This document shows positions 13,535 to 61,738 of a stretch of 64,000 nucleotides of DNA, one piece after another. Location: positions 15,028-79,027 of the forward strand of contig JAFQQT010000027.1 in assembly GCA_017410455.1 (NCBI GenBank), given 5' to 3'. Within the stretch, counting starts at the first letter, position 1. The number at the start of each line of letters is the position of its first letter. The notes under the pieces are model-generated. The model saw only the letters and a program-made list of their open reading frames with translations, ran no database searches and was not told the origin of the DNA. The translations under genes and the position numbers were made by a program. This DNA comes from Clostridia bacterium. Lineage in GTDB: Bacteria; Bacillota; Clostridia; Christensenellales; Aristaeellaceae.

Positions 13535-13555
13535 AGAACACGAAAATCGCATCCA

Positions 13556-13639
13556 CCGCTGGGGGTGCGGCACGGGAAACCGCCGCCGCTGAGATACACC
13601 CTTGGAACCTGTGTAGGTCATCCTACCGTAGGGAAGCGG
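13556..13639 (+). promoter_or_regulatory. TPP (THI-box) riboswitch
   Basis: CTGGGGGTGC...CTGAGATACACCC..GGAACCTG...GGTCATCCTACCGTAGGGAAGCGG matches the THI element. A GGCA-ATTCG-TGCC hairpin followed by GTTTT lies just downstream. Confidence 0.85.
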
Positions 13640-13792
13640 GGCAATTCGTGCCGTTTTCGTGTAGATCCGGACTACAGGAAAACCCCGAATGGCCATCCTG
13701 CTTTCCCGCGTACACACGCGGGTTTTTCATTTGCGTAAGAGTCGGGGAAACTCCGGCTTGACAGGATGCGTCGCAAAGGAGGATTTTCACCC

Positions 13793-14589: not shown

Positions 14590-15510
14590 ATGCTTGACAT
14601 CTGCACCCTGGGCACCGGCGGCACCATGCCCCTGCCCGACCGCGCCCTGTCCGCGCTCTACGTCCGCGTGGGCGGGCGGAGCCTGCTCATCGACTGCGGC
14701 GAGGGCACGCAGGTGGGCGTACAGAAGCTCGGCTGGGGCATGCAGTGCATCGACGGCATCCTCATCAGCCACTACCACGCCGACCACGTTTCCGGCCTGC
14801 CGGGGATGCTGCTGGCGCTGACCAAGGCACAGCGCCAAGAGCCGCTGCACATATACGGCCCCGTGGGGCTGCCCTACATCGTGGGCGGGCTGCGGGTCAT
14901 CGCGCCGCAATTGTCCTTCCCCATCGTGCTGCACGAACTGAAGGAGGATCTGTCGCCCTTCCACATCATCGGGCTGGAGGTCACGCCCTTCCCGCTGGAT
15001 CACGGCATGCCCTGCCTGGGGTACCGGCTGCACCTGCCCCGCGCGGCGGTCTTTGACGCCGAAAAGGCGCGGGCGGCCGGCGTCCCCGTCCCCCTGTGGA
15101 AGCGCCTGCAAAAGGGCGAAACCGTCACCGAGAACGGCCGCACCTTCACCCCGGCGGACGTGATGGGCGCGCCCCGCCCCGGCATCACCGTCCTGTGCGC
15201 CACGGACACCCGCCCCGTGGACGCCATCCCCGACCTGGGCTTCCGCTGCGACATGATGATCCTGGAGGGCATGTACGGCGCGGAGGAGAAGTACCCCCTC
15301 GCCCTCAAGAACCACCACATGCTCTTCCGCGAGGCCGCCGCCCTGGCCCGGGACGCCGAAGCCGGTCAGCTGGTGCTGACCCACTTCAGCACCAGCATCG
15401 AAGCGCCGGAGGATTTCCTGCCCAACGCCACGGCCATCTTCCCGGACACCGTCTGCGCCACAGACGGGCAGACGTGGACGCTGCGCTACCCACAGGGCGA
15501 TAGTAATTAA
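14590..15510 (+). CDS. rnz: ribonuclease Z / MBL-fold hydrolase
   Basis: Trimmed to MLDICTLGTGG at 14590 (AGGAGG RBS). ISHYHADHVSG motif. Length 306 aa. Confidence 0.7.
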   Translation: MLDICTLGTGGTMPLPDRALSALYVRVGGRSLLIDCGEGTQVGVQKLGWGMQCIDGILISHYHADHVSGLPGMLLALTKAQRQEPLHIYGPVGLPYIVGGLRVIAPQLSFPIVLHELKEDLSPFHIIGLEVTPFPLDHGMPCLGYRLHLPRAAVFDAEKARAAGVPVPLWKRLQKGETVTENGRTFTPADVMGAPRPGITVLCATDTRPVDAIPDLGFRCDMMILEGMYGAEEKYPLALKNHHMLFREAAALARDAEAGQLVLTHFSTSIEAPEDFLPNATAIFPDTVCATDGQTWTLRYPQGDSN

Positions 15511-15621
15511 TCATGAATTATGAATTAGGAATGTATCCTGCGGCACGGCCTTTACAAGCCGGCACAACACTCCAAATTCATCATTCATAATTCATAATTC
15601 ATAATTCATAAGTCATAATTA
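15505..15621. repeat. AT-rich module pair forming a long inverted repeat
   Basis: AATTAATCATGAATTATGAATTAGGAATG at 15505-15533 faces CCAAATTCATCATTCATAATTCATAATTCATAATTCATAAGTCATAATT at 15572-15621. Confidence 0.8.
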
Positions 15622-15637
15622 ACCCAAGGGGGGTTCC

Positions 15638-16231: not shown

Positions 16232-16700
16232 CGAATACCAGCGCATCCGCAGGGGCGACTATCAGCCACCCGCATGCCGCATCACCCGATTGTCGCTAAG
16301 GGGCGCACAACGCCAGGCTGCTGCGCATCAGCGCTGCCCTCTGACGACCCACATCGCCGCAGGACACCTCATCACCGCCTGCGGGCGGAGTTTCCCCTCA
16401 AGGGGAAGCCGGGGAAGAATCCGTGCTGGGCAGCTGAAGGCTCTCCCTCAGGGAGAGCTGTCCCGAAGGCACCGAGAGGGGGCTCCCGGCAACGCGCAAC
16501 CATGCCACAGTCCCACGCGGGCGCAAGCATGACCGAAGGCACTCTACTCAATCGCGAGCCGGGTCCAGCGTCACGCTGGTGTCATTTCAGACGCGAAAAT
16601 GTATCTTTGGAGCAAAGCCTATGGCCAAACCCTGTGGCCTGTGCTATACTGCAAGCGTGGTAAGAACCCGGGAAACCCCCGGTAACCCTTGAAGGAAGGA
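16232..16700 (+). repeat. composite GC-rich intergenic repeat (contains the C module and the CTATCAG hairpin)
   Basis: GGCGACTATCAGCCACC hairpin near 16253. CACCTCATCACCGCCTGCGGGCGGAGTTTCCCCTCAAGGGGAAGCCGGGG at 16365-16414. Confidence 0.75.
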
Positions 16701-25042: not shown

Positions 25043-25918
25043 ATGGGTGCATGGAGCGTTTCCATTACCGGCAATGACACAGCGCGTGACCTGCTCACCG
25101 AGTATTCCGCCGCCTTCAGCCGCTACGCCCCCGCAGAGGCCGTCGCCCTGCTGGACGCTTATGTCCGCCGGGATTTCCGCGCCGGCCCCGGCGACGAGGA
25201 CTGGGTGGACTACCGCTACTCGCTGGCGCAGTTCATGTGGAAGAAGGGCGTGCTGACCGATGCAGTCCGGGACGAGGTCATCGCCATGATCGACCGGGGC
25301 GAATGCCTCGACCTCTACGAGGACGCCGCCACCCTGCGCAAGCGGCAGAAGGTGCTGGCGGAGTTCCGGGCGCAGCTGCTCTCCCCGCAGCCGCCGCGCA
25401 AGCCCATCCGCGTCAGCCGCGCGCAGATGACCCTGCCCTACGAAGTGGGCGACGTGATCGCCATGCGCCTGCACACGGCCGCATGCCGCACCGAGTACCA
25501 CCGCCCCCGCCTGTCCGCAGAGGCCTTCCGCCAGCTGGACGGCCAGTGGTTCGTCTGGCAAATGGTGAAGGCGCATGTGTCCTGGCGTTCCGCCGTTGTG
25601 CCGGAAGTGTTCGACGTGTGGCCGTATTACCGGATGTACGCCGCCGTCTTCCCGGAGGTCCCCACCCTGGCGCAGCTGGCGGACGTGCCCTTCGTGCGCT
25701 ACAGCGACGTATGGCACCCCACCGTCCGCACGGCGCTGATCACCGGCAACAACACCCACACGGGCTACCGCAGGCGCGAGGCGCAGCTGATCGGGCGCGT
25801 CGATGTGACGCTGCCCCGGGGCGAGGCATACAACGAAACGATGATCCTCCCCGCCTGCCTGCCCCCGACCTTCGAGACCGACGCGGAGATCGCCTGCCTG
25901 CTCTACGGGCGGCAGTGA
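25043..25918 (+). CDS. hypothetical protein, DUF4259-like N-terminus
   Basis: MGAWSVSITGNDTARDLL resembles the MGAWG..FDND.A.D start of DUF4259 as I remember it. Confidence 0.45.
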   Translation: MGAWSVSITGNDTARDLLTEYSAAFSRYAPAEAVALLDAYVRRDFRAGPGDEDWVDYRYSLAQFMWKKGVLTDAVRDEVIAMIDRGECLDLYEDAATLRKRQKVLAEFRAQLLSPQPPRKPIRVSRAQMTLPYEVGDVIAMRLHTAACRTEYHRPRLSAEAFRQLDGQWFVWQMVKAHVSWRSAVVPEVFDVWPYYRMYAAVFPEVPTLAQLADVPFVRYSDVWHPTVRTALITGNNTHTGYRRREAQLIGRVDVTLPRGEAYNETMILPACLPPTFETDAEIACLLYGRQ

Positions 25919-25929
25919 ACGGCGGACAG

Positions 25930-26562
25930 GCCCGGAACGGTTGCAGGGGCGGATATCAGCCGCCCGCATCACCGCTGTTCCGGATGGCCGCAAAGGCTCG
26001 CGCCACATCGCACAATCCCTTCCCGCCACGCCCACCTCATCACCGCCTGCGGGCGGAGCTTCCCCTCAAGGGGAAGCCGGGGATGCCCGGGCGGGCGCGT
26101 TCCTTTGCGGGTTGCGCGTTGGTGCGGCATGCGGGAGAGGCAAACCCTCCCCTACGGCATGGGGGAGCGAAACAGAACGGAGCGTCCGTAGGGACGGCTA
26201 TCAGCCGCCCGCCTCGCGCCTGCCCCGGATTGCCGCAAGGGCGCATACCGCCTCACACCCCATGCGCCCGCTTGCCGCTGTTCCGGATGGCCGCAAAGAT
26301 ACGCACCGCCTCACGCACCGTCAGACCGCTGCAGCGCCCCGCCGCCGCATGACACCTCATCACCGCCTGCGGGCGGAGCTTCCCCTCAAGGGGAAGCCGG
26401 GGATGCTCGGGCGGGCGCGTTCCTTTGCGGGTTGCGCGTTGGTGCGGCATGCGGGAGAGGCAAGCCCCTCCCCTACGGCACAGGGGGACGGATCAAGCCG
26501 GACGCCCGCGCTCCCCATCAGCCCCCGCCATCCAAATTCATAATTCCTAATTCATAATTCCC
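25930..26562 (-). repeat. composite intergenic repeat, two tandem ~300-320 bp units ending in the AT-rich module
   Basis: C/D module at 26033-26140 and 26353-26460. CTGTTCCGGATGGCCGCAAAG appears twice. CTATCAG hairpins. AT module at 26532-26562. Confidence 0.85.
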
Positions 26563-26575
26563 GCTTCCTCCCACG

Positions 26576-27829: not shown

Positions 27830-28407
27830 ATGTTGTCGTGCCCGCAGGCGGGAGCCTTTGGCATGTGGTGCCGGGGATTTCTCCGGAAATCCGGTTCAGT
27901 CCGGAGGGCGAAAAGCCGCCCTCTCCGGGGGAGGTTCGTTCCTTTGCGAGGTGTGCGTTGGTGCGGCATGGGGCGGAGCGAACCGGAACGGAGCGTCCGC
28001 AGGGGCGGCTATCAGCCGCCCGACACGCGTCTACCCCGGATTGCTGCAAAGGCGTACACCGCCTCACACCCCACGCGCCCGCTTGCCGGCTGTTCCGGAT
28101 GGGCACAGAGGCATGCACAGCCTCACACATTTCTCTTCCCCCGCAAGACACCTCATCACCGCCTGCGGGCGGAGCTTCCCCTCAAGGGGAAGCCGGGGGA
28201 GATGCCGGGGCGGGGGCGTTCCTTTGCAGGTTGTGCGTTGGTGCGGCATGGGGGCGGAGCGAACCGGAACGGAGCATCCGCAGGGGCAGCTATCAGCCGC
28301 CCGCCTCGCTGCTGCCCCGGATTGCTGCAAAGGCTTGCGCAGCGGGCTGCCCACCCCCGTCCCCACCAGCTAAATTCCGAATTCATAATTCATAATTCAT
28401 AATTCCC
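27830..28407 (-). repeat. composite intergenic repeat, two tandem ~282 bp units ending in the AT-rich module
   Basis: D module at 27937-27974 and C/D module at 28149-28254. GGCGGCTATCAGCCGCC hairpins near 28003 and 28285. AT module at 28371-28407 abuts the NYN gene stop. Confidence 0.85.
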
Positions 28408-29406
28408 TTATAGGAGCTTGATCAGCATCGTCCGCTGCTCGTCCATCTCGACCTCCACCAGGCCGTCCTTCTCCAGCTGCTTCATCACATCGGAGAAGCG
28501 CTTGAAGCCGATGGCGCGCTCGTTGAAGCCGGGGTAGGTGGTGAGGATGTCCGCCTTGAGGATGGAGGGGTTCACGCGCTCGAAGCCGCCCTCCTTGTAG
28601 GCCTGGAGCTGGGCGGCGAAGGCGTCGCGCCAGTTCTCCCGGGTCAGCTGGGACTGGGCCTCGGCAGCGTCACCGCTGTTCAGGCGCACCATCACGTTGA
28701 AGTTGTCGTTCGTCACGTGGATGTCTCCGAACCGGCTGGCCAGGCGCGTCAGGAGCTTGTAGAAGGACGCGCAGCCGTAGGTCTTCTCATTGAAGTCCGG
28801 GCGCAGGCGGGTCAGCACGCCCTTGAGCTCAGAGGCGTACATCTCGTCCATGCCGCTGGACTCGTCCACGATGGACACCACCAGCTTGTTCAGCTCGGCC
28901 TCGTCCGCGGCCTCCTCGCTCACGGCAGCGGCGGTGCGCTGCTTCTTTGCGCGGGCGGGAGCGGCGGCCTTGCGGCTCATGCCCTCCAGGAACTGGAACT
29001 CGTTGCACGCGTTGATGAACACATTGCTGGCGGCTTCCGAGCGGCTGATGCCCAGGACGAACTTGCCCATCGACTTCAGCTTGCCCACCAGGGGGACGTA
29101 GTCGCTGTCGCCGGACACGATGCAGAAGCTGTCGATCAGCGGGTTCGAATAAGCCACGGACAGCGCGTCGATGACCAGCTGGATGTCGGCATTGTTCTTC
29201 TGGGCGATGCCGTAGCGCAGGCTGGGCACAACGGTGAAGGTGTTGGAGAGCAGCGTCTCCTTCAGGGCGGAGAAGCGGTCGGTGTAGCCGTAGACCATGC
29301 CCAGGAGGATATCGCCGCGGATCTTGACCTTCTCCAGCACGCTTTGCAGGGTCTCCACCCGCGCGCCGCAGTTCTCCAGGTCGATAAACACAGCAAATTT
29401 TGCCAT
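28408..29406 (-). CDS. NYN-domain (PIN-like RNase) protein with C-terminal OST-HTH/LOTUS-like region
   Basis: Track ORF trimmed to MAKFAVFIDLEN at 29406. CIVSGDSDYVPLV motif. Confidence 0.8.
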   Translation of the reverse strand: MAKFAVFIDLENCGARVETLQSVLEKVKIRGDILLGMVYGYTDRFSALKETLLSNTFTVVPSLRYGIAQKNNADIQLVIDALSVAYSNPLIDSFCIVSGDSDYVPLVGKLKSMGKFVLGISRSEAASNVFINACNEFQFLEGMSRKAAAPARAKKQRTAAAVSEEAADEAELNKLVVSIVDESSGMDEMYASELKGVLTRLRPDFNEKTYGCASFYKLLTRLASRFGDIHVTNDNFNVMVRLNSGDAAEAQSQLTRENWRDAFAAQLQAYKEGGFERVNPSILKADILTTYPGFNERAIGFKRFSDVMKQLEKDGLVEVEMDEQRTMLIKLL

Positions 29407-32214: not shown

Positions 32215-32575
32215 TCATCGGGGAGGGATCCTTGGGTGTGCGCTTGTGCGGCCGGGTGAATCAAGCAGCATGAGGCTGGTACGGGGCTGTTGTGGGGGGC
32301 GTATTTCCCGTTGACTGTGCGGGCATGCCGCATGCAGGCAACCAATGGTCGCCCCTACGGGGACACACGCCACCTCACGCCCCGACGGCGGCGTATTTCC
32401 GTTGACTGCGCAGTCATGCCGCATGCGGGCCGCTGACAGCCACCCCGACAAGGCTTCCGGCTCATCCGGCCTCTCCTGCGCCCCGCCCCCACCATCCAAA
32501 TTCATAATTCCTAATTCCTAATTCATAATTCCTGATCCTCCCCCGTCCCCACCATCCAGATTCCGAATTCAAAAC
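32215..32575 (-). repeat. composite intergenic repeat with one full and one partial AT-rich module
   Basis: Internal direct repeat GGCGTATTTCC(C)GTTGACTG..CATGCCGCATGC. AT modules at 32496-32538 and 32556-32575. Confidence 0.75.
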
Positions 32576-32612
32576 AGGACGCTCCCCACCCAGGAGGGAA
32601 CGTCCCGTTTTG
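32570..32612 (-). terminator. terminator of the hydrogenase operon
   Basis: ACAGGACG..CGTCCCGT stem with flanking A/T runs on both sides. Confidence 0.6.
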
Positions 32613-37895: not shown

Positions 37896-38355
37896 CCTGA
37901 CAGGCCGATCCCTCCGGGGGTGATACCTGATCAGCCCCGATCGTGGGGGGTAAGGGGGGCAGGACAGAGCGCAGCGATGGCCTGACCGATCCCACCGGAG
38001 GTGATAAGGCACAGGCCGAGCGCAGCGACAGCCTGATCAGGCCTCCCCCATCAAAGGGGAAAGGGCACAGGCTGAGCGCAGCGATGGCCTGATCAGGCCT
38101 CCCCAATCAAAGGGGAACAGGCGCAGGCCAAGCGCAGCGATGGCCTGATCAGGTCTCCCCAATCAAAGGGGGAAAGGGCACAGGCCGAGCGCAGCGATGG
38201 CCCGATCAGGCCTCCCCAATCAAAGGGGAAAGGGCGCAGGCCAAGCGCAGCGATGGCCCACCCCCACCAACGGTGGCAAGGCAAGCCCATCGCAGCGCCC
38301 CCATCCCATCCCCACCCGATCGGTGGAAAGGGGTACCAGCCGAGCTCCGCAATGG
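37896..38355. repeat. tandem array of about 9 units of ~56 bp
   Basis: Units start at 37896, 37926, 37981, 38032, 38088, 38143, 38201, 38257 and ~38300. Core unit: CCTGATCAGGCCTCCCCAATCAAAGGGGAAAGGGCACAGGCCGAGCGCAGCGATGG. Confidence 0.85.
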
Positions 38356-38369
38356 CCCCGTCCCACAAA

Positions 38370-38404
38370 CCAAATTCCTGATCCATAATTCCTAATTCAT
38401 AATT
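38370..38404 (-). repeat. AT-rich module copy
   Basis: Minus-sense AATTATGAATTAGGAATTATGGATCAGGAATTTGG, directly after the pepM terminator. Confidence 0.8.
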
Positions 38405-38443: not shown

Positions 38444-39736
38444 TCACTGATTGGGCAGCAGCGTCAGGATCTCTTTAATGGACATGCACAGCTGATCAGC
38501 CTCGCGGCTGCGGCCGTTCTCCAGGATCGACCGGGCCGTGGCCTGCATGGCCGGGAAGGCGCTGCGGATCAGGTGGTTGGCGTGGATGACGACGTTCACC
38601 CCGTGGGCGGCCAGCTCGGCCTCGGTGGCGCCGTTGTAGGTCGTGGGCACGACGATGATGGGCGTCTTCGGGTCCACCCGGCGGAAGGCGTCGCAGAAGG
38701 TGTACACCTCGTCCGGGGTCTTCGACTTGGAGTGGATCATGATGCCGTCGGCCCCGGCCTTCACATAGGCGTGGCAGCGGGTCAGGGCGTCCTCCATCCC
38801 CTGCTCCAGGATCAGGCTCTCGCAGCGGGCGATGATCATGAAGTCGCGGGTCTTCCGGGCGGCCTTGCCGGCGGCGATCTTGTGGCAGAAGTCCTCGATG
38901 CTGTCCTGCACCTGCCCCACGCCCGCGCCAAAGAGGCTGTTCTTTTTCAGGCCCTTCTTGTCCTCGATGATGATGGCGGAGATGCCCATGCGCTCCAGGG
39001 TCTGCACGTTGTATACGAAGTGCTCCACCAGGCCGCCGGTGTCCCCGTCGAGGATAATGGGCTTGGTGGTGACCTCCATGATCTCCTCCAGCGTGCGCAG
39101 GCGGCTGGTCATGTCCACCAGCTCGATGTCAGGCTTGCCCTTGGCGGTGGAGTCGCACAGGCTGCTGACCCACATGGCGTCAAACTGGCGGCGGCCTGCG
39201 GGGGTCTCCACGGCGGTCTTTTCCACGATCAGGCCGGTGATGCCGTTGTGGGCCTCGCACACGCTCAGGCAGGGCTTGCAGCTCAGCAGGCGGCGCAGGC
39301 GGCTCCGGCGGGTCTCCGGCAGGGACAGCAGCGCGTCCAGCGCGGAGAGGGTCTCCTCCGTGGGCGTGTGCGTGTAGGGGAACTCGACGAGCTGTCCGCC
39401 CCACCGGGCCAGCACCTCGATCACCCTCTGGCGGATGTTGGCCTGGTAGCCCACGAGCCAGTCATCCCCGTGGACGACGACGTCCGGCTTCAGCCGGATG
39501 AGGATATCGGTGTAGTCGAGGGTCTCCTGCACCACCACGCGGCTGACGTATTTCAGGCTCTCGAACATCGCCACGCGCTCCTCCAGCGGCAGCAGCGGGT
39601 AATGCTTGTAGCTGGCCACAACCTCGTCCGTCAGGATGCCGACGGTCACTTCGCCCAGCGCCGCGGCCTTCTTGAGGATGGAGAGGTGGCCGTTGTGGAT
39701 GATGTCGGTGGAAAAGCAAATGTAGACCTGCTTCAT
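38444..39736 (-). CDS. aepX: cytidylyltransferase-PEP mutase fusion protein
   Basis: N-terminal HxGH nucleotidyltransferase motif STDIIHNGH. C-terminal PEP mutase motifs ILDGDTGG and IIIEDKKGLKKNS. Confidence 0.85.
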   Translation of the reverse strand: MKQVYICFSTDIIHNGHLSILKKAAALGEVTVGILTDEVVASYKHYPLLPLEERVAMFESLKYVSRVVVQETLDYTDILIRLKPDVVVHGDDWLVGYQANIRQRVIEVLARWGGQLVEFPYTHTPTEETLSALDALLSLPETRRSRLRRLLSCKPCLSVCEAHNGITGLIVEKTAVETPAGRRQFDAMWVSSLCDSTAKGKPDIELVDMTSRLRTLEEIMEVTTKPIILDGDTGGLVEHFVYNVQTLERMGISAIIIEDKKGLKKNSLFGAGVGQVQDSIEDFCHKIAAGKAARKTRDFMIIARCESLILEQGMEDALTRCHAYVKAGADGIMIHSKSKTPDEVYTFCDAFRRVDPKTPIIVVPTTYNGATEAELAAHGVNVVIHANHLIRSAFPAMQATARSILENGRSREADQLCMSIKEILTLLPNQ

Positions 39737-40548
39737 GCCAGTACCTCCTTGGCAAAGCGGCGGCTGACGGCTTCCTTGTCAGCCTGGTTGTCGATCTCGG
39801 CGCAGAGGAGCCCCGCCACATCCAGCGGGCGGATGGGGATCTCCCGCCACGCGGCGTTGAAGGCGTTCTCGGCGTAGACGCGGTCGTTCCCGGCGGATTC
39901 GAAGGCGGCGATCTCCTGCAGCCAGCGGTCCACCTGAGCAGCCCTGAGCAGATAGGCGGGCTGCAATTCGACGCAGTCCGGGCCGAAGACGTTCACGCCC
40001 ACCTCGCAGACGAGGCCATCGGCAATGCGCCCCTTGAAGTCCTTTTCGGGCAGGGGTAGCGTGCTGTCGACGGTCACGGCGGATACGGGGGACGCGGCCA
40101 GGCGGCGCATCACCTCCGGGTGCATCACCAGGTCGCCGTGCAGGCTGATGACATCCTGACCAGCAAGGAGTTCGCGCGCCAGGTGAACGGAGTGGATGTA
40201 ATTGGTCTCCCAGAAGCGCGGATTGTGCACGAAGCGGAAGCGGATGGGCGTGTCCAGCGAGCGGAGGTAGCCTTCCAGCATGTCGCTCAGGTGCCCGGTG
40301 GTGACCACGGCCTCGGTGACGCCGACGGCTTCCAGGCACTTCAGCTGCCAGGAGATGATGGTCTCCGGGAGTGGCCCAAGGTCGGACGCATGTCCGACTG
40401 GCGACAGCGATTCCTTGGAATCGCCGAGCGTAGCCAGCGGCGGAGCTTGCCTCCGGTGATGGCCGAGTACCGTCATGCATTTGGGGTGTTCGCGGGTCTC
40501 GTCCCCCATGCGGGAGCCGAGGCCGGAATTGAGAAGCAGTGCGATCAT
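39733..40548 (-). CDS. LicC-like nucleotidyl(cytidylyl)transferase
   Basis: Start chosen at MIALLLNSGLGSRMG (GGAGAA RBS). The stop overlaps the pepM-fusion start (ATGA). Confidence 0.7.
   Translation of the reverse strand: MIALLLNSGLGSRMGDETREHPKCMTVLGHHRRQAPPLATLGDSKESLSPVGHASDLGPLPETIISWQLKCLEAVGVTEAVVTTGHLSDMLEGYLRSLDTPIRFRFVHNPRFWETNYIHSVHLARELLAGQDVISLHGDLVMHPEVMRRLAASPVSAVTVDSTLPLPEKDFKGRIADGLVCEVGVNVFGPDCVELQPAYLLRAAQVDRWLQEIAAFESAGNDRVYAENAFNAAWREIPIRPLDVAGLLCAEIDNQADKEAVSRRFAKEVLA
40381..40455 (+). repeat. three-hairpin intragenic element, copy 4 (inside the LicC-like gene, antisense to it)
   Basis: H1 GTCGGAC-GCAT-GTCCGAC at 40381-40398. H2 GCGATTCC-TT-GGAATCGC at 40407-40424. H3 CGGAG-CTTGC-CTCCG at 40441-40455. 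Confidence 0.75.
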
Positions 40549-40599: not shown

Positions 40600-40881
40600 C
40601 TCCAGTGCTGCCGCAGGGGCGGGTGTCAGCCCCCTTCGCCGCTGGTTCACGCCGCCGCAGGACACCTCATCACCGCCTGCGGGCGGAGCTTCCCCTCAAG
40701 GGGAAGCCGGGGAGGCGCCGGGCAGGGCGTTCCATTGCGGGTTTGCGTTGGTGCGGCATGCGGGAGGACTGCAGCATAGCAGACCAGCCCAAGCCTCCCT
40801 CCCCGAGGGAGGTAGATTCCTTCGCGGCTTGAAAAGCCGGGTAGGAAGACGGAAGGGGGCCTCCTGCAGGCCTCGCCGGGC
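40600..40881 (+). repeat. composite GC-rich intergenic repeat inside the phosphonate operon
   Basis: C/D module at 40663-40767, then the CCTCCCTCCCCGAGGGAGG hairpin and others. Confidence 0.75.
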
Positions 40882-42099
40882 TCACTGCTGCAGGAAGGCC
40901 ATCAGCGCGTCGCGGTTCTGCTGCGGGGTGGTGGTGGGGCGGCCGAGGTCAGCCCGCGCACCCACGGCGCACATCACCTCGATGAAGGCCAGCTCCCCGG
41001 CGGACAGGGCCGCATCGATGGCATTGAGCAGGGTTTCGGGGCTGTTCGCGCGGCAGACGCTGCGGTAGCCCGCGGCCATGGCCAGGGCGCACAGGTCGAG
41101 GCCGCCCTCGCACACGGGCATGCCGCCGACGGTCTCATGGGCGCCATTGTTGATCACGACATGCACAAGGTTGCGGGGCTGCCGCTGGCCGATGACCGCC
41201 ATCGCGCCCAGGTGCATCAGGGCTGCGCCGTCGCCATCCAGGCACCAGATGCGGCGCTCGGGCTGCTCCATGGCAATGCCCAGGGCGATCATGGAGGCGT
41301 GGCCCATGCTGCCCACGGTGAGGAAGTCGCGCTCGTGGCCCTGATGTGCCGCCTCCCGCAGCTCGAACAGCTCGCGGCTGAGCTTGCCTGTGGTAGACAC
41401 GAAGGCGTCGCGGCTCCCCGCCAGCCGGGCGATGATCCCCACGGCCTCCTCGCGGGTCATGGCGTGGGCGTTGCCGTAGACGGGCTTGGCGGAGCAGGTG
41501 AGCGCGCCCTTCTTCACCACGATGGCCGCGGTGCGGTTGGCAGCCAGGTGGGCGCGGATGCCCGCGAAGGCCGCGTCGAAGTCGGCCTCGGTCATGGCCT
41601 TGTCCAGCACCATGTACGGCACATCCAGCAGCTCCAGCTGGCTGAGGGTCACCTGCCCCTGCTTGACATGCTGCGGCTCGTCATCAGTCGCCCTCGTCAC
41701 GCTTTGCGCGCCGGGGGTACAGGCCATCAAATCCGAGGATTTGACAGCCTTAGTCAGCGGTGAACCGCTGACCTCCGTCACGGGTTCGCCGCGCCAGCCG
41801 ACGACCAGCAGGCAGGGCATGGCGTAGACCTGAGCATCCATCAGCGAGGCCAGGGGGTTGACGGCGTTGCCCAGGCCGGAATTCTGCATGTAGCACAGCG
41901 CGGGCCGCCCGGTGGCCAGGAAATGCCCGGCGCACAGGCCGATGGCGTTGCCCTCGTTGGCGGCGACGATGTGCTTCTCCTTCACGCCCAGGGTGGCATA
42001 GAGCGTATCGCACAGCCCCTTGAGCTGCGAGTCCGGCACGCCGGTGAAGAAGTCGATGCCCGCATCACGGCAGGCGGCAAGCAGGTGCTGTGCGTCCAT
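40882..42099 (-). CDS. aepY: phosphonopyruvate decarboxylase (ThDP enzyme)
   Basis: ThDP motif GDGAALMHLGAMA..NNGAHETVGG. VVGWRGEP...DDEPQHVKQG block. Confidence 0.85.
   Translation of the reverse strand: MDAQHLLAACRDAGIDFFTGVPDSQLKGLCDTLYATLGVKEKHIVAANEGNAIGLCAGHFLATGRPALCYMQNSGLGNAVNPLASLMDAQVYAMPCLLVVGWRGEPVTEVSGSPLTKAVKSSDLMACTPGAQSVTRATDDEPQHVKQGQVTLSQLELLDVPYMVLDKAMTEADFDAAFAGIRAHLAANRTAAIVVKKGALTCSAKPVYGNAHAMTREEAVGIIARLAGSRDAFVSTTGKLSRELFELREAAHQGHERDFLTVGSMGHASMIALGIAMEQPERRIWCLDGDGAALMHLGAMAVIGQRQPRNLVHVVINNGAHETVGGMPVCEGGLDLCALAMAAGYRSVCRANSPETLLNAIDAALSAGELAFIEVMCAVGARADLGRPTTTPQQNRDALMAFLQQ
41689..41784 (-). repeat. in-frame three-hairpin intragenic element, copy 3 (inside aepY, sense)
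   Basis: Sense H1 GTCAGCGG-TTCA-CCGCTGAC (41772-41753). Sense H2 TCAAATCC-TC-GGATTTGA (41744-41727). Encodes VTEVSGSPLTKAVKSSDLMACTPGAQSVTRAT. Confidence 0.75.
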
Positions 42100-42261
42100 G
42101 TGTCATCACTCCATTGGTTGGTATTCATATCATTATAGCATATCCGGCAGGGTTTGGCTACAGGAGATTTCAGCAGGCAGCAAAAAAGGCCGCCGCACCG
42201 AAGCGCAGCGACCAAACCAGGGTACATTCCAGGACTCCCGAAAACCACCCCAGTCCACAAA

Positions 42262-42294
42262 CCCAATTCATAATTCCTGATTCCTAATTCCTGC
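42262..42294 (-). repeat. AT-rich module copy abutting the capA stop
   Basis: Minus-sense GCAGGAATTAGGAATCAGGAATTATGAATTGGG, starting 1 nt after the TGA. Confidence 0.8.
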
Positions 42295-42295
42295 T

Positions 42296-43471
42296 TCACT
42301 TCTCCTCTCCCCATTCCAGCGGATACTCCGCCACCGCATAGGTCAGGTTCTTGCCGTTCCTGAGGAGGGTGTTGACGACGGCCTCCTTGGAAGAGGCGCT
42401 GTCGTAGGGCGTGGGGGTGAAGTCGTTGCGGTTGGTGCGGGAGGAGATGCGGATGGGGATGATGCGGAAGCCCTCGTTGGCGATGACCTGGCCCTCCTCG
42501 CCCTCGGTGATGCGGAAGCGGGTCTGGAAGAGGAAGGACGTCATGTCATCGGGGTTGTTGTGGCCAGCGAAACAGAAGTTGCCCAGGCTGTAGCAGATGT
42601 ACACGCCCTTGTACTGCTCGATGGGCTGGATGCGGTGGCTGTGGTGGCCGATGACCAGATCCGCGCCGGAATCCACGGCCAGGCGGCCCATCTTGACCTG
42701 ATTGTTCGTGGGGACGTACTCCTTCTCGTTCCCCCAGTGGAAGCTGACGATCACGATGGGGTACTGCGCCTTGGCGGCGGCGATGTCTGCAGGCACCACG
42801 TCCCAGAGCTTCGAATAGCGGTCGATGCACAGGTAGGAGAGCATGGCGATCTTGACGCCCTTGACCTCGTAGACGCCCAGTTCGCCATCGCCGGACCAGA
42901 CCACGCCCGCATCCGTCAGGTGCTGCTTGGTTTCGTCCCACACGGCCTGGCCGTGATCGAGCACGTGGTTGTTCTCCAGCGACACGGCCTCGATGGAGTT
43001 GTCCGTCAGCATCCTGGTGTAGGAGGGCGGCGCGCTGAAGAGGAACTGGTTCTCCCGCTTCTCCGGGGGTACATAGGTGCTCTCGGTCAGCGTGCCCTCG
43101 AAGTTCACGATGGTCAGGTCGTCCTTTTCGAGGATGGACCTGATGTTGCGCAGAGCAAAGTTGGGGTCGCCGCCCTGGCGCTCCAGCTCATCCTCCCAGA
43201 TACTGCCCCGGTCGCGGCTGTCCCCGCCGACGGTGAAATCGCCCGTGGCGGTGATGGTGATGAGGATGGAGCCGTCCTCCTCGTAGAAGCTGGTGAGGGT
43301 CGCTTCCACCTCGATGGCCTGATCCTCCACTTCCTCAGGGATGACGATAAAGGTGTCGAACACCACGTCCGGGTCGGCGTTTTCCATCAGGTCCGCCATG
43401 GACAGCTCCTCCTCCGCAAGGGCCGCGGGGATGAGCAGCAGGCACAGCAGCAGCACGATCAGTTTGCGCAT
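42296..43471 (-). CDS. CapA-family (poly-gamma-glutamate/metallophosphatase-like) secreted protein
   Basis: Signal peptide. GHHSHRIQPIE and YSLGNFCF motifs. Confidence 0.8.
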   Translation of the reverse strand: MRKLIVLLLCLLLIPAALAEEELSMADLMENADPDVVFDTFIVIPEEVEDQAIEVEATLTSFYEEDGSILITITATGDFTVGGDSRDRGSIWEDELERQGGDPNFALRNIRSILEKDDLTIVNFEGTLTESTYVPPEKRENQFLFSAPPSYTRMLTDNSIEAVSLENNHVLDHGQAVWDETKQHLTDAGVVWSGDGELGVYEVKGVKIAMLSYLCIDRYSKLWDVVPADIAAAKAQYPIVIVSFHWGNEKEYVPTNNQVKMGRLAVDSGADLVIGHHSHRIQPIEQYKGVYICYSLGNFCFAGHNNPDDMTSFLFQTRFRITEGEEGQVIANEGFRIIPIRISSRTNRNDFTPTPYDSASSKEAVVNTLLRNGKNLTYAVAEYPLEWGEEK

Positions 43472-45270: not shown

Positions 45271-46401
45271 TCACTCGATGAACATGGCGTCGCCGAAGGA
45301 GAAGAAGCGGTAGCGCTCCTCCACCGCCTCGCGGTAGACGTCCAGGGCCGTTTCCCGGCCCATGAAGGCGCTCACCAGCATCAGGAGCGTGCTCTGCGGC
45401 AGGTGGAAGTTGGTAATCAGCGCATCCACGGCCTTGATCTTCTTGCCGGGGTAGATGAAGATGGCCGTGTCCCCCGCGCCGGGGTGGATGACGCCGTCCT
45501 CGGTGGCGACGGTCTCCAGCGTCCGCACAGAGGTGGTGCCCACGCAGATGATGCGCCCGCCCGCCGCGCGGATGGCGTTGAGCGTGTCCGCCGCCTCCTG
45601 GCTGACGTGGTAGTACTCCGAGTGCATCACATGGGTGTCCACATCCTCCACGGTGACGGGGCGGAAGGTGCCCAGCCCCACATGCAGGGTCACGGGCACG
45701 ATGGTCACGCCCTTCTGCTTCACCTTCTCCAGCAGCTCCGGGGTGAAGTGCAGACCGGCGGTGGGCGCAGCGGCAGAGCCCTCGTTCTTCGCATAGACGG
45801 TCTGGTAGCGGCTGCGGTCCTCCAGCTTCTCGTGGATGTAGGGCGGCAGGGGCATCTCGCCCAGCCTGTCCAGGATCTCCTCGAAAACGCATCCGGCCAT
45901 CCCCGGGACAAGCCCGGTGCTGGCTTCACCCGGCGATTGCGAGCAATCGCTCGGGCTCGTCGGGCTTTGCCCGACCTGATCCCACATGAAGCGCACGATG
46001 CGCCCGCCGATCTCCGGCACGGAGGACAGCACCTCGCACCGGAGCAGGCCATCGCCGAAGACGCACACCGCGCCGGGCTTGAGCCTGCGGCCCGGCTTGA
46101 CCAGCGCCTCCCAGTCCGTGGCGTTGATGCGCCTGAGCAGCAGCACCTCCACCGGGACGCTGTGGCCCTGGCTGTCGACGCCCTCCTTCACGCCCAGCAG
46201 ACGCGCCGGGATCACCTTCGTCTCGTTGATGACCAGCGCATCACCGGCGTTCAGGTAGTCGAGGATATCGTGGAAATGGCGATGCTCCCGGCTGCCGTCG
46301 CTCCGGTGGACGACCAGCATGCGGGAGTGGTCACGGGGCTCCACGGGGGTCTGGGCAATCAGCTCCTCGGGGAGGTTGTAGTCAAAATCAGCGGTTCTCA
46401 T
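45271..46401 (-). CDS. queA: S-adenosylmethionine:tRNA ribosyltransferase-isomerase
   Basis: [19 protein letters not shown] and [10 protein letters not shown] motifs. Confidence 0.95.
45900..45981 (-). repeat. in-frame three-hairpin intragenic element, copy 2 (inside queA, sense)
   Basis: Sense H1 GTCGGGC-AAA-GCCCGAC (45975-45959). Sense H2 GCGATTGC-TC-GCAATCGC (45950-45933). Sense H3 CCGGG-CTTGT-CCCGG (45917-45903). Encodes [28 protein letters not shown]. Confidence 0.8.
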
Positions 46402-51524: not shown

Positions 51525-52898
<1,374 letters not shown>

Positions 52899-52943
52899 AA
52901 GTGTTGCCTCCTTAAAATATGTGAGCATTCTTATCCACGATAT

Positions 52944-52972
52944 AGTATAACAGATGCAGGGGCTTTGTTCAA
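52944..52972 (-). promoter_or_regulatory. argH promoter (inside the repeat)
   Basis: Minus-sense TTGAAC, 17-nt spacer, TATACT. Confidence 0.55.
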
Positions 52973-53001
52973 TCTCTCAAAACAATTTGCGCAATAAAAT
53001 A

Positions 53002-53789: not shown

Positions 53790-53921
53790 TCATGACAGAT
53801 CGATTCCCCGAACGACGAACATGTCCTCCTCGGCCATGCGCTGGTCGAAGGAAATGGAAGAATGGAAATCGTCCATCAGGTGATCGGTGGATTTGGCAAA
53901 ACGGCCGCCCCAGAGTTTCAT
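53790..53921 (-). pseudogene. argH 5' remnant (34 argH codons fused to 9 foreign codons)
   Basis: MKLWGGRFAKSTDHLMDDFHSSISFDQRMAEEDMFVVRGIDLS. It carries its own copy of the promoter and RBS. Confidence 0.85.
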
Positions 53922-53997
53922 AAGTGTTGCCTCCTTAAAATATGTGAGCATTCTTATCCATGATATAGTATAACAGATGCAGGGGCTTTGTTCAATC
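53821..53997 (-). repeat. 177-bp direct repeat, distal copy
   Basis: See 52798-52974. Confidence 0.95.
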
Positions 53998-56781: not shown

Positions 56782-56877
56782 GTGTGTTGTCCCCTTTCAA
56801 ACGAAAAATGGCCGCCCGTTTTTCAACAGACAGCTCCGGGGAACGACGCAGACACTGATACCCGATGGTACATATCG

Positions 56878-56971
56878 CCTGCTCCGTCCTTTTGCCTGAG
56901 AGATTCCACCGATGCAGCCGCACCGGCTTTGCACCTTCGGCACTCACCTGTGTGAGGTTCTCCGGAGTTCC
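56878..56971 (-). promoter_or_regulatory. glycine riboswitch, single aptamer
   Basis: Minus-sense CCGGAGAACC...GTGCCGAAGGTGCAAAGCC...GAATCTCTCAGGCAAAAGGACGGAG. Confidence 0.8.
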
Positions 56972-57023
56972 CTCCCCCCGCGGGCTGTGTTGGTTCCTGC
57001 GGATATCGTCGGGAATGGTCATT

Positions 57024-60567: not shown

Positions 60568-61046
60568 CCAGGGGCCTCCGGCGGGCAGGGGCGCTGCCCC
60601 TGCACCCTGCGAAGGGACTTCGTCCCTTTCGAAACCCATTCTCGCGATTTTGTTTTGGGTTCTCCTGGAGCTGGACTCGCGTGGGAGTTGGGCGGGGGTG
60701 CGCGTCGCACGTGGCACGGAGGGTGCCACGCGCGGGCACGGCTCGCAGAGGGCGAGCCGCGCTGGTGTTGCGCTTTGCCAAGGCTCCAGGGGCCATTAAC
60801 ATTCCTCGTCGCTTTCGCCTTCGGCGAACTCCCCACTGGGGAGCCGCTCCCGCGGAATGCCCCTTTGACTCCAGCAGGGGGACTTCGTCCCCCTGCACCC
60901 CCTCGCGGCTGCGCCGCGTGCCCACCCGCCCACCCCGGGGGCTATCGCCCCCGACCCCCATGGACGCTGCTCGCTTCGCTGCGCTGCTGCTTTCCCGTGC
61001 CCACACAATCAATTCCGAATTCCGCATTCCGAATTCGTATTCCGGA
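60568..61046. repeat. GC-rich hairpin train plus an AT-rich-like module between ruvC and ruvA
   Basis: Hairpins CAGGGG-CGCT-GCCCCTG, AAGGGAC-TTC-GTCCCTT, GTGGCAC-GGAGG-GTGCCAC, CGGCTCG..CGAGCCG, GGGGGAC-TTC-GTCCCCC and GGGGG-CTATC-GCCCCC. AATTCCGAATTCCGCATTCCGAATTC at 61010-61035. Confidence 0.75.
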
Positions 61047-61055
61047 GGAATACCA

Positions 61056-61661
61056 ATGTACGCATTCATCGAAGGTCAGGTCTGCGAAAAGACCAACAAC
61101 CAGCTCGTGCTGCTGGCCGGCGGCGTAGGGTATCTGCTGAGCTGCTCCATGGCGACGCTGAACGCCGCGCCGGTCACCGGCGAAACGATGCGCTGCCATA
61201 CCTGGCTGTCTGTGCGCGAGGACGCCATGGAGCTCTTCGGGTTCGCCACGAAGGAGGAGAAGCAGCTCTTCCTCATGCTCACCGGCGTCACCGGCGTGGG
61301 GCCCAAGATGGCCCTGGCGCTGCTGTCCACGCTGAGCGTGCAGGATCTGCGCCTGGCCATCATCATGGAGGACGAGAAGACCATCGCCCGTGCCCCCGGC
61401 GTTGGCAAGAAGATCGCCCAGCGCATCGCCCTGGAGCTCAAGGACAAGCTGGGGCAGTTCAGCGTGTCCTCCGGCGCAGCGGCCAGCCCGGTGGCGGCCG
61501 TCCCTGCAGCGGCGGACAACTTCGCCCAGGCCATCGCCGGCCTGACCGCCCTGGGCTACACCCCCGGTGAGGCCCGCGACGCACTCAGCAAGGTCGAGAA
61601 CAAATCCGCCCCCGTGGACGAGCTCCTGCGCCTGGCGCTGCGCTCCATGGCGGGAATGTAA
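61056..61661 (+). CDS. ruvA: Holliday junction DNA helicase RuvA
   Basis: My own start call at MYAFIEGQV, inside the spurious 584-aa track ORF. GVTGVGPKMALALL HhH. Confidence 0.95.
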   Translation: MYAFIEGQVCEKTNNQLVLLAGGVGYLLSCSMATLNAAPVTGETMRCHTWLSVREDAMELFGFATKEEKQLFLMLTGVTGVGPKMALALLSTLSVQDLRLAIIMEDEKTIARAPGVGKKIAQRIALELKDKLGQFSVSSGAAASPVAAVPAAADNFAQAIAGLTALGYTPGEARDALSKVENKSAPVDELLRLALRSMAGM

Positions 61662-61662
61662 A

Positions 61663-61693
61663 GGGAATTATGAATTAGGAATTATGAATTGGG
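61663..61693 (+). repeat. AT-rich module copy 2 nt after the ruvA stop
   Basis: GGGAATTATGAATTAGGAATTATGAATTGGG. Confidence 0.85.
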
Positions 61694-61738
61694 TTTGTGA
61701 CGCGAACGACGGATCACAGGAGGAGAACGAGTTTCATT

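Follow-up and report, generated by a model that had tools for sequence, protein, structure and literature searches.

What two genes as different as queA and uvrC could have in common at the nucleotide level is the question raised by a 64,000-nt stretch of a Clostridia bacterium contig (JAFQQT010000027.1, positions 15,028 to 79,027; hereafter the window). A sense-oriented segment of about 87 nt is found both in queA (45892-45978, minus strand) and in uvrC (8698-8784, plus strand), and sequence reading together with pairwise alignment gave the same three hairpins (H1, H2 and H3) in each. We consider it very likely that the Christensenellales (Clostridia) harbour a small, non-autonomous dispersed repeat and that each segment is one of its copies.

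When uvrC 8695-8760 on the plus strand was aligned with queA 45978-45912 on the minus strand, the blocks AGGTCGGGC, GCCCGACGAGC, CGATTGCTCGCAATCG and GAAGCC were found to be held in common. The plus strand of uvrC reads AAG GTCGGGC-TTCA-GCCCGAC GAGCATGT CGATTGCTCGCAATCG ACGTGCGAAGCC..., and the sense (minus) strand of queA reads CAG GTCGGGC-AAA-GCCCGAC GAGCCCGAG CGATTGCTCGCAATCG CCGGGTGAAGCC.... In uvrC a 4-nt H1 loop goes with an 8-nt spacer (GAGCATGT) between H1 and H2, and in queA a 3-nt loop goes with a 9-nt spacer (GAGCCCGAG), so that H2 is read in both genes in the frame GAT TGC TCG CAA TCG (DCSQS). These results agree with a prior inspection of the letters (the sequence-only reading), which had reported near-identical copies in the same orientation and frame and had described the offsetting one-nucleotide differences accurately, although its queA coordinates (45900-45981) were slightly displaced from the inserted 87 nt (45892-45978). 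Its proposal that the frame is held by compensating indels stands for the length offset and needs qualification for the cause, as family members differ freely in the length of the H1 loop (2-6 nt) and of the spacer, and the frame is what remains after selection. Chance is excluded as the source of the similarity by the counts in the window, where the identical 16-mer of the H2 core occurs at 2 sites against 0.08 expected and the H1 hairpin pattern at 2 sites against 0.01 expected.

Both segments are additions to their host proteins. Residues ~142-170 of QueA have no counterpart in the Bacillus subtilis QueA structure 1yy3, which continues directly after residue 141, and the site is contiguous in B. 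subtilis, as the sequence-only reading had stated. The UvrC segment sits between '..LLDMG' and 'AEVAMFGLAKK', and nothing is present at that position in 3c65 (Geobacillus stearothermophilus-type UvrC). An AlphaFold model of QueA from a 15-sequence alignment was poor (mean predicted local distance difference test score, pLDDT, of 52.5), with the insert as coil at pLDDT 27-31, and it was given no weight.

Alignment of the QueA orthologues revealed that the insert is polymorphic. It is present in the window QueA (376 aa) and in the protein clusters P0002 and P0003 (377 aa, 91% identity), and it is absent from P0004, the closest orthologue with 95% amino acid identity outside the insert, as well as from the other QueA sequences, all of these proteins without it having 342-347 aa. 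The empty allele reads TTC ATG TAC GAC|GGG GTG TTC at the DNA level and the filled alleles read TTC ATG TGG GAT CAG GTCGGGC...GGCCGG(TCA)T GGC GTG. The two filled lineages match at 83 of 87 insert positions (95.4%), with 84.7% identity over the genes. The window queA as a whole is nearer to the empty allele (89.8%), and the 60-90 nt beside the insert are nearer to the other filled allele. The simplest reading is that one insertion was either moved between lineages by homologous recombination or kept as an old polymorphism, and constraint at the nucleotide level may add to the high identity of the insert. A third QueA (P0103, at locus L003) carries a related insert with compensated stem changes at a different site, and it was this insert that pointed to a repeat family.

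The family was defined by an exact-pattern scan (GTCGG N6-12 CCGAC N8-14 ATTGCTNGCAAT) over 185,579 species genomes, which yielded 77 loci. About 57 of them are in metagenome-assembled genomes (MAGs) of Clostridia/Christensenellales from human, ruminant and deer gut or rumen, often with many loci per MAG, and the remaining ~20 are isolated single matches in unrelated high-GC phyla, without the rest of the element. A covariance model (R1) run over 414 kb of the Clostridia loci found 91 copies, of which ~24 lie beyond the seeds, roughly one per 17 kb. SIG357 has about 25 or more copies when those found by the covariance model in flanking DNA are included. Three full-scoring copies (89-100 bits) were also observed on IMG/VR contigs classed as viral (L081, L082 and L083), which could be prophage regions or misclassified host DNA. 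The claim of the sequence-only reading that an inserted nucleotide element, and not protein homology, underlies the similarity is thus borne out, with the element occurring at dozens of intergenic sites and in other genes in both orientations. No Rfam 15 family matches canonical copies, including a five-copy array, at E <= 10, and at the gathering threshold the window contains only a thiamine pyrophosphate (TPP) riboswitch and a glycine riboswitch, both away from the element. A search of a 5.8-billion-protein collection with sense and antisense consensus peptides gave five candidates and two hits and was uninformative on breadth.

The consensus of the family is (T/G)GAG GTCGGGC-loop-GCCCGAC TA(G/A)CG..AG..ATTGCTTGCAAT..C..AG(C/T)GTAG CCAGCGC-(variable stem-loop)-GTGATGGCCGAA. 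From GTCGG to two bases past GGCCG the element measures 80-90 nt, mostly 84-87 nt, with a GC content of 60-69%. RNAalifold folds it into three consecutive hairpins. H1 (GTCGGGC-loop-GCCCGAC) opens the unit, which is preceded by AG, usually GAG, and AG stands directly before GTCGG in 62 of 64 copies. H2 is a long imperfect stem around ATTGC-TT-GCAAT. H3 consists of GCCAGCGC, a variable tip and GTGATGGC, with GTAG before and CGAA after; at its 5' foot GTAG was found in 48 of the 64 copies, GAAG in 8, GCAG in 6 and GTAC in 2, the last G being the first base of the stem.

The three hairpins are conserved as structures. Standard pairs occupy 98.2% of the pair cells in the 64 copies and 24 pairs analyzed, compared with 83% in shuffled alignments and 24-44% when the partners were slid, and changes on both sides were observed at 13 of the 24 pairs (215 cells). 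Other compensated H2 cores found by the model include ATTCC/GGAAT, CCAATGC/GCATTGG and GATCAC/GTGATC. In the pair table G-U outnumbers A-C by 34 to 7, which identifies the sense strand as the strand that folds.

The window holds four copies according to an R1 search at a cut-off of E < 0.01, two of them missed by the sequence-only reading. All four are intragenic, two on the plus and two on the minus strand, and all fold into three hairpins, with the RNA fold z-scores given below. The copy in queA (host gene 45271-46401, minus strand, 376 aa) is sense and in-frame and adds QueA residues ~142-170 (29 aa); in plus-strand numbering, H1 is at 45959-45975, the H2 core at 45934-45949 and H3 at 45896-45924. 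The copy in uvrC (host gene 7153-9150, plus strand, 665 aa, identical to public protein P0121) is likewise sense and in-frame, with H1 at 8698-8715, H2 at 8718-8745 (core 8724-8739) and H3 at 8749-8780. Their scores of 87.9 bits for queA and 76.2 bits for uvrC are inflated, as both copies were in the training alignment of R1; the fold z-scores are -3.4 and -6.8 respectively.

The third copy (40377-40467, plus strand) was outside the training set and scores 86.6 bits (fold z = -2.4). It lies antisense and in-frame in a gene for a LicC-like nucleotidyltransferase (39733-40548, minus strand), the product of which has a weak PDB match (E = 0.007) and no Pfam match at 1e-5. The copy adds ~31 aa (VLGHHRRQAPPLATLGDSKESLSPVGHASDLGPLP), with query residues 28-62 aligning to chain residues 53-56 of 1jyk. 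It is a canonical copy that retains GTAG, and its H2 core, ATTCC-TT-GGAAT, is a compensated variant. The fourth copy (41687-41776, minus strand) is diverged (38.4 bits, E = 6e-6, fold z = -5.6) and lies sense and in-frame in the neighbouring gene for a phosphonopyruvate-decarboxylase-like TPP enzyme (40882-42099, minus strand). It accounts for ~32 extra aa (VTEVSGSPLTKAVKSSDLMACTPGAQSVTRAT); the Pfam TPP_enzyme_N match of this protein stops at residue 106, and query residues 107-139 align to residues 123-124 of chain 9iz3_A.

Across the family most copies are intergenic, often in operon spacers, and a minority are in-frame within genes. Of 65 copies, 16-17 have a Shine-Dalgarno sequence, a start codon and an open reading frame (ORF) of at least 100 codons within ~25 nt downstream on their own strand, compared with 4-6 in the mirrored antisense test. 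Ten copies begin 4-40 nt after the stop codon of an upstream gene on the same strand, and one more such gene ends in the element's own TAA. Many copies therefore fill the spacers of co-directional genes and must be present in polycistronic transcripts. Replication-strand polarity was considered as the cause of the orientation bias and rejected, given the two plus and two minus copies in the window and its monotonic GC skew. Head-to-tail arrays with variable linkers of 5-8 nt occur at L017 (six copies with a 106-nt period), L018, L071, L079 and L058; one array is flanked by a tRNA gene on either side, and one copy separates a TPP riboswitch from its ribosome-binding site. The 3' flanks of L023, L029 and L080, which come from different MAGs, have the same sequence (..CGCAGATCACCCCGGAGTGAGACGGCCTGAA..), so that these copies may belong to a larger composite repeat or to one orthologous locus.

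Intragenic hosts confirmed by Pfam include a beta-lactamase family protein, shikimate dehydrogenase, a response regulator and an Mrp antiporter subunit. In an MGH1-like glycoside hydrolase the same site is filled in two MAGs. Three in-frame copies were found in a single B12-binding radical-SAM/DUF4080 ORF of SIG357 (L042:5622-7586), of which one is antisense (aa 204-232), one is sense in a second frame (~aa 268-298) and one is sense in the usual frame (aa 506-535). Self-splicing introns and inteins are unlikely to account for such copies, which are always stop-free in the host frame with net lengths that are multiples of three (87, 90, 93 and 3x93 nt), and 29-31 aa is far below the size of an intein.

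The history of an intragenic copy can be followed best in uvrC, for which 115 orthologue clusters were scored. The site is empty in 77 of them, where the protein reads DMG|AEVAMFGLAKK and the DNA of one such locus (L086) reads ATG GGA GCG GAG^GTT GCG ATG. A full insert of 29-31 residues was found in 11 clusters, and in one cluster (P0122; L027:6449-6725, RGIG4686) three tandem head-to-tail, in-frame copies of a 93-nt unit occupy the same site as the window copy. Inserts of intermediate length occur in ~21 clusters, and several of these can be recognised as remnants of internal deletion by the first (V.VGP..) and last (..QAE) element codons that they keep. Exactly 87 nt have been added in the shortest full alleles (DMG-VK-VGPW...GQAE-ISMF), in which the element stands directly 3' of the host G(C/T)G (G/A)AG, with no duplication. 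Compared with the empty alleles the window has gained a net 93 nt (8686-8778 when left-aligned), of which 6 nt are a duplication (GTTCGT|GTGAAG) adjoining the element on its 5' side, where the orthologue at L027 reads GTGAAA GTGAAG. This series of empty, full, triple and eroded alleles is a clean natural record of the gain, amplification and wear of an insert in an essential-type gene.

Most full-length UvrC orthologues (P0122-P0132) carry a C-x4-C-x2-C motif (DC[SL]QS.CE[AV]CD) within the insert, encoded at 8724-8760 in the window. It came from two AGC to TGC changes in the uvrC lineage relative to the canonical element. The 30 nt that encode the cysteines form hairpin H3 and are identical in the window and L027, without a synonymous change. 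Codon comparison of the two inserts as a whole gave six non-synonymous differences and one synonymous difference.

The reading frame of the sense intragenic copies is explained in large part by stop codons. Canonical copies carry TAG or TAA right after H1 in 50 of 64 cases and GTAG before H3 in 48 of 64, which closes two of the three sense frames across H2. Ten of the 11 sense intragenic copies read H2 as DC(S/L)QS, and the eleventh (L003), in which another frame is open, is read in that one; a single frame serves all four antisense intragenic copies, ..LA(T)LGDCKQSL.LVG..PDL. The one-nucleotide differences between uvrC and queA are ordinary variation of the family seen through this open-frame filter.

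The queA and uvrC copies of the window belong to a subfamily in which both TAGs are missing (TAG to GAG and GTAG to GAAG, giving GAC GAG CG ... GCG AAG CC). At least 16 members were found in several species, 10 of them intragenic, compared with ~8 of 72 for canonical copies. Without the TAGs the three sense frames are largely free of stops; in the uvrC copy none of the three is closed, and one member (L042:6423-6516) departs from the usual frame. As the uvrC and queA copies have no TAG stops, their shared frame is not enforced by stops today and could be due to ancestry or to chance (1 in 3). The notion that both TAGs were lost because an ORF was required was rejected for queA, where neither TAG falls in the used frame and the T to G change is synonymous; canonical copies also read through in the queA frame. 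The stop-free copies may simply be the likeliest to survive in genes, or the loss of GTAG, the motif cut by the transposases of repetitive extragenic palindromes (REPs) known as REP-associated tyrosine transposases (RAYTs) (PMC3733652), may immobilise copies that then persist. On the opposite strand the GAC GAG copies (e.g., window 8709-8722) read C-GTC-GGGC..., so that a CGTC adjoins the stem of H1. A CGTC tag is also described for RPE-type repeats (PMC3733652; RPE, Rickettsia palindromic element), a likeness that may be trivial as the GTC is here within the stem.

A stronger proposal, which we hold to be doubtful as a whole, is that this subfamily (GACGAG...GCGAAGCC) has become adapted to intragenic life, that with few sense-frame stops and perhaps the loss of the transposase-cut GTAG it colonises or persists in ORFs across several species, and that its hairpins are kept there by selection at the nucleotide level. 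If this were true, the subfamily would be a coding-competent selfish element or an intragenic RNA or DNA structural module, and no insertion accident. The stop-free subfamily offers a testable instance of a repeat shaped by residence in coding sequence.

The reading we prefer for the family at large is that of a dispersed repeat. Copies would duplicate to new sites, mostly short operon spacers, with local head-to-tail amplification. A copy entering a gene would survive only if its length is a multiple of three, its frame is free of stops and the protein has a tolerant loop at that position, and it would then be translated as an insert of ~30 residues. Such a copy can be removed only by in-frame deletion and therefore persists for long; persisting copies would spread between related lineages by homologous recombination, expand, or erode stepwise, and they probably have no function of their own. 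As the most likely route of mobilisation we infer an HUH/Y1 transposase (RAYT-like or IS200/IS605-like) that would act in trans on one strand, recognise the hairpins and insert the element 3' of (G)AG without target duplication. This inference draws on the absence of terminal inverted repeats (5' terminus (G)AGGTCGGGC, 3' terminus GATGGCCGAA, TCGG the only inverted match), the lack of a significant target duplication, the AG tag, the hairpins at the ends, the GTAG motif, the one-strand fold bias and the empty uvrC site (GCG GAG^GTT), where insertion is exactly 3' of GAG without duplication. Over 52 independent copies, the match between a copy's own flanks averaged 4.58 compared with 4.41 for cross-paired flanks, a difference that was not significant (p = 0.067).

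Several observations weigh against this reading or limit it. The rule of insertion 3' of a host AG fails at queA, where the insert measures 90 nt, reduced to 87 nt in the window by a 3-nt loss, and follows a CAG that the empty alleles lack. Duplication-like flanks exist at L078 (AAAGGAG on both sides) and L013 (TTGGAG/CGGGAG), and with the permutation result at the borderline a short target duplication is possible. No transposase was found in the 651 kb of the window and loci by an HUH-Y motif search and by tblastn with approximate IS200, IS608 and RAYT queries. As RAYTs are usually single-copy, one may be encoded elsewhere in these genomes. Pairing is still complete in the hairpins of old intragenic copies, the insert of queA has changed more slowly than the surrounding gene, and a 30-nt part of the uvrC insert shows no difference between species; all this could indicate a function at the nucleotide level instead of neutrality. 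In addition, the invariance of GTCGG, CCGAC and ATTGCT.GCAAT was partly imposed by the search pattern, and the coding or intergenic status of many copies rests on ORF heuristics. As to a source for the enzyme, Group 1 RAYTs have been reported from Clostridia (PMC5581495).

A rival view is that the element is foremost a functional structured RNA, involved in intercistronic processing or stability or in the control of translation near the ribosome-binding site, with its hairpins selected also within ORFs and its dispersal secondary. The strong covariation, the excess of G-U over A-C on the sense strand, and the low fold z-scores of old intragenic copies that keep their hairpins are in line with it, as are the sense bias beside downstream starts (16-17 vs 4-6), the necessary co-transcription of the operon-spacer copies, the copy between the TPP riboswitch and its ribosome-binding site, and a queA insert more conserved than its gene. 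Yet the copies stand beside unrelated genes, between tRNA genes, in tandem arrays and within ORFs in both orientations, and they are present or absent at orthologous sites. Sequence varies freely in the tip of H3 and in the stem of H2, as is usual in palindromic repeats and not in RNAs that bind a ligand or protein, and the uvrC orthologues shed the hairpins piecemeal while the gene is retained. Together with the lack of an Rfam match, this makes a primary RNA function improbable in our judgement.

We give far less credit to two further explanations. In one of them the segment is a protein module, a short cysteine-containing and possibly metal-binding loop that is shuffled between proteins and selected as a peptide; the shared frame of most sense copies and the retention of C-x4-C-x2-C in most full-length orthologues of the uvrC lineage could be taken that way. 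The same nucleotides, however, recur between genes in more than 50 copies whose frames contain stops, the peptide read from antisense in-frame copies is unrelated, many orthologues have lost or eroded the insert, and the absence of synonymous change in the 30 nt encoding the cysteines in the window and L027 argues for constraint on nucleotides and not on the peptide, so that this explanation is very unlikely. Just as improbable is a classical MITE (miniature inverted-repeat transposable element), i.e., a deletion derivative of an insertion sequence (IS) that a DDE transposase would move by way of its terminal inverted repeats, duplicating the target site. The small unit, the many copies, the polymorphic sites and the flanks at L078 and L013 (with the borderline permutation test) would suit a MITE, but in the consensus the 5' end (GGTCGGGC) and the reverse-complemented 3' end (TTCGGCCATC) have only TCGG in common, there is no consistent target duplication, the shortest uvrC alleles gained 87 nt without one, and the arrays are head-to-tail with variable linkers of 5-8 nt.

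The window contains other repeats as well. A composite GC-rich intergenic repeat with the core CACCTCATCACCGCCTGCGGGCGGAGCTTCCCCTCAAGGGGAAGCCGGGGA and neighbouring modules was found at 16243-16415, 25916-26480, 27925-28370 and 40607-40782, with 4-6 copies in the window; it is unrelated to the three-hairpin element and occupies the intergenic spacers here, while the three-hairpin element was seen only inside genes. A/T-rich runs of the AATTC(A/C)T type (e.g., CCAAATTCATAATTCCTAATTCATAATTC) occur in both orientations at eight or more sites in this otherwise 65% GC sequence (15488-15634, 26518-26566, 28356-28409, 32482-32587, 38356-38404, 42229-42296, 60994-61039 and 61661-61699). A tandem array of ~56-nt units lies at 37997-38258, and a 177-nt duplicate (52798-52974 and 53821-53997, 99% identical) is separated by 1 kb. 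The two riboswitches above the Rfam gathering score are the TPP riboswitch at 13551-13651 (plus strand) and the glycine riboswitch at 56874-56975 (minus strand).

For annotation, the repeat explains puzzling inserts of ~30 residues and length heterogeneity in core genes (uvrC, queA, aroE-like genes, response regulators and others) of an abundant but uncultured lineage of the gut and rumen. The covariance model and consensus provide an annotation marker for a repeat that is missed by gene callers and by Rfam.

A literature search found nothing on repeats in Christensenellales and no report of elements of this kind from their phylum. The mycobacterial interspersed repetitive units (MIRUs) are alike in being operon-spacer units that are oriented like the genes on either side and vary in tandem copy number, and differ in having another sequence that does not form three-hairpin palindromes. 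RPEs have been found inserted in-frame within numerous genes (Ogata et al. 2000, summarised in PMC10969869). Like the present element they are short palindromic repeats dispersed between genes and in-frame in unrelated housekeeping genes, where they add a conserved peptide that the host protein tolerates and can be read in either orientation. RPEs are however ~100-150 bp long and belong to AT-rich, obligately intracellular alphaproteobacteria, whereas the element has 87 nt and 60-69% GC and occurs in free-living gut Clostridia with head-to-tail arrays; set apart by host and opposite base composition, the two are functional analogues only.

The GTAG REPs mobilised by RAYTs (PMC3733652; PMC5581495) resemble the element in a GC-rich stem-loop after an unpaired GTAG (48 of 64 copies, at H3), in G-T pairs that mark one folded strand, in subfamilies with compensated stems, and in their occurrence in operon spacers, in clusters and occasionally in-frame in repair genes. 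GTAG and CGTC REPs are known within genes, notably uvrA, uvrB, recB and polymerase genes (PMC3733652). REPs are single palindromes of 20-40 nt, mostly arranged as inverted dimers, unlike the fixed three-hairpin composite of 87 nt repeated head-to-tail, and the survey of GTAG repeats did not report them from Firmicutes (PMC3733652; PMC5581495). The palindrome-associated transposable elements (PATEs) derived from IS200/IS605 likewise lack terminal inverted repeats, carry hairpins at both ends and a short conserved stretch directly 5' of the left end, and show no regular target duplication; for the present element no TnpA or parent IS with matching ends was found, and orientation in the window is mixed (two plus, two minus). 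The QMITEs of Coxiella create in-frame fusions (PMC5896051) and differ in sequence.

As the element falls outside the definitions of both REPs and MITEs, we file it as a new family of the REP/RPE-like kind and not as a new principle. It extends the in-frame colonisation of genes by palindromic repeats, known from Rickettsia, Coxiella and some REP-rich Proteobacteria, to the Clostridia, and it adds three features, namely the uvrC series of insertion, amplification and erosion, the in-frame use of both orientations, and a stop-free subfamily enriched in genes.

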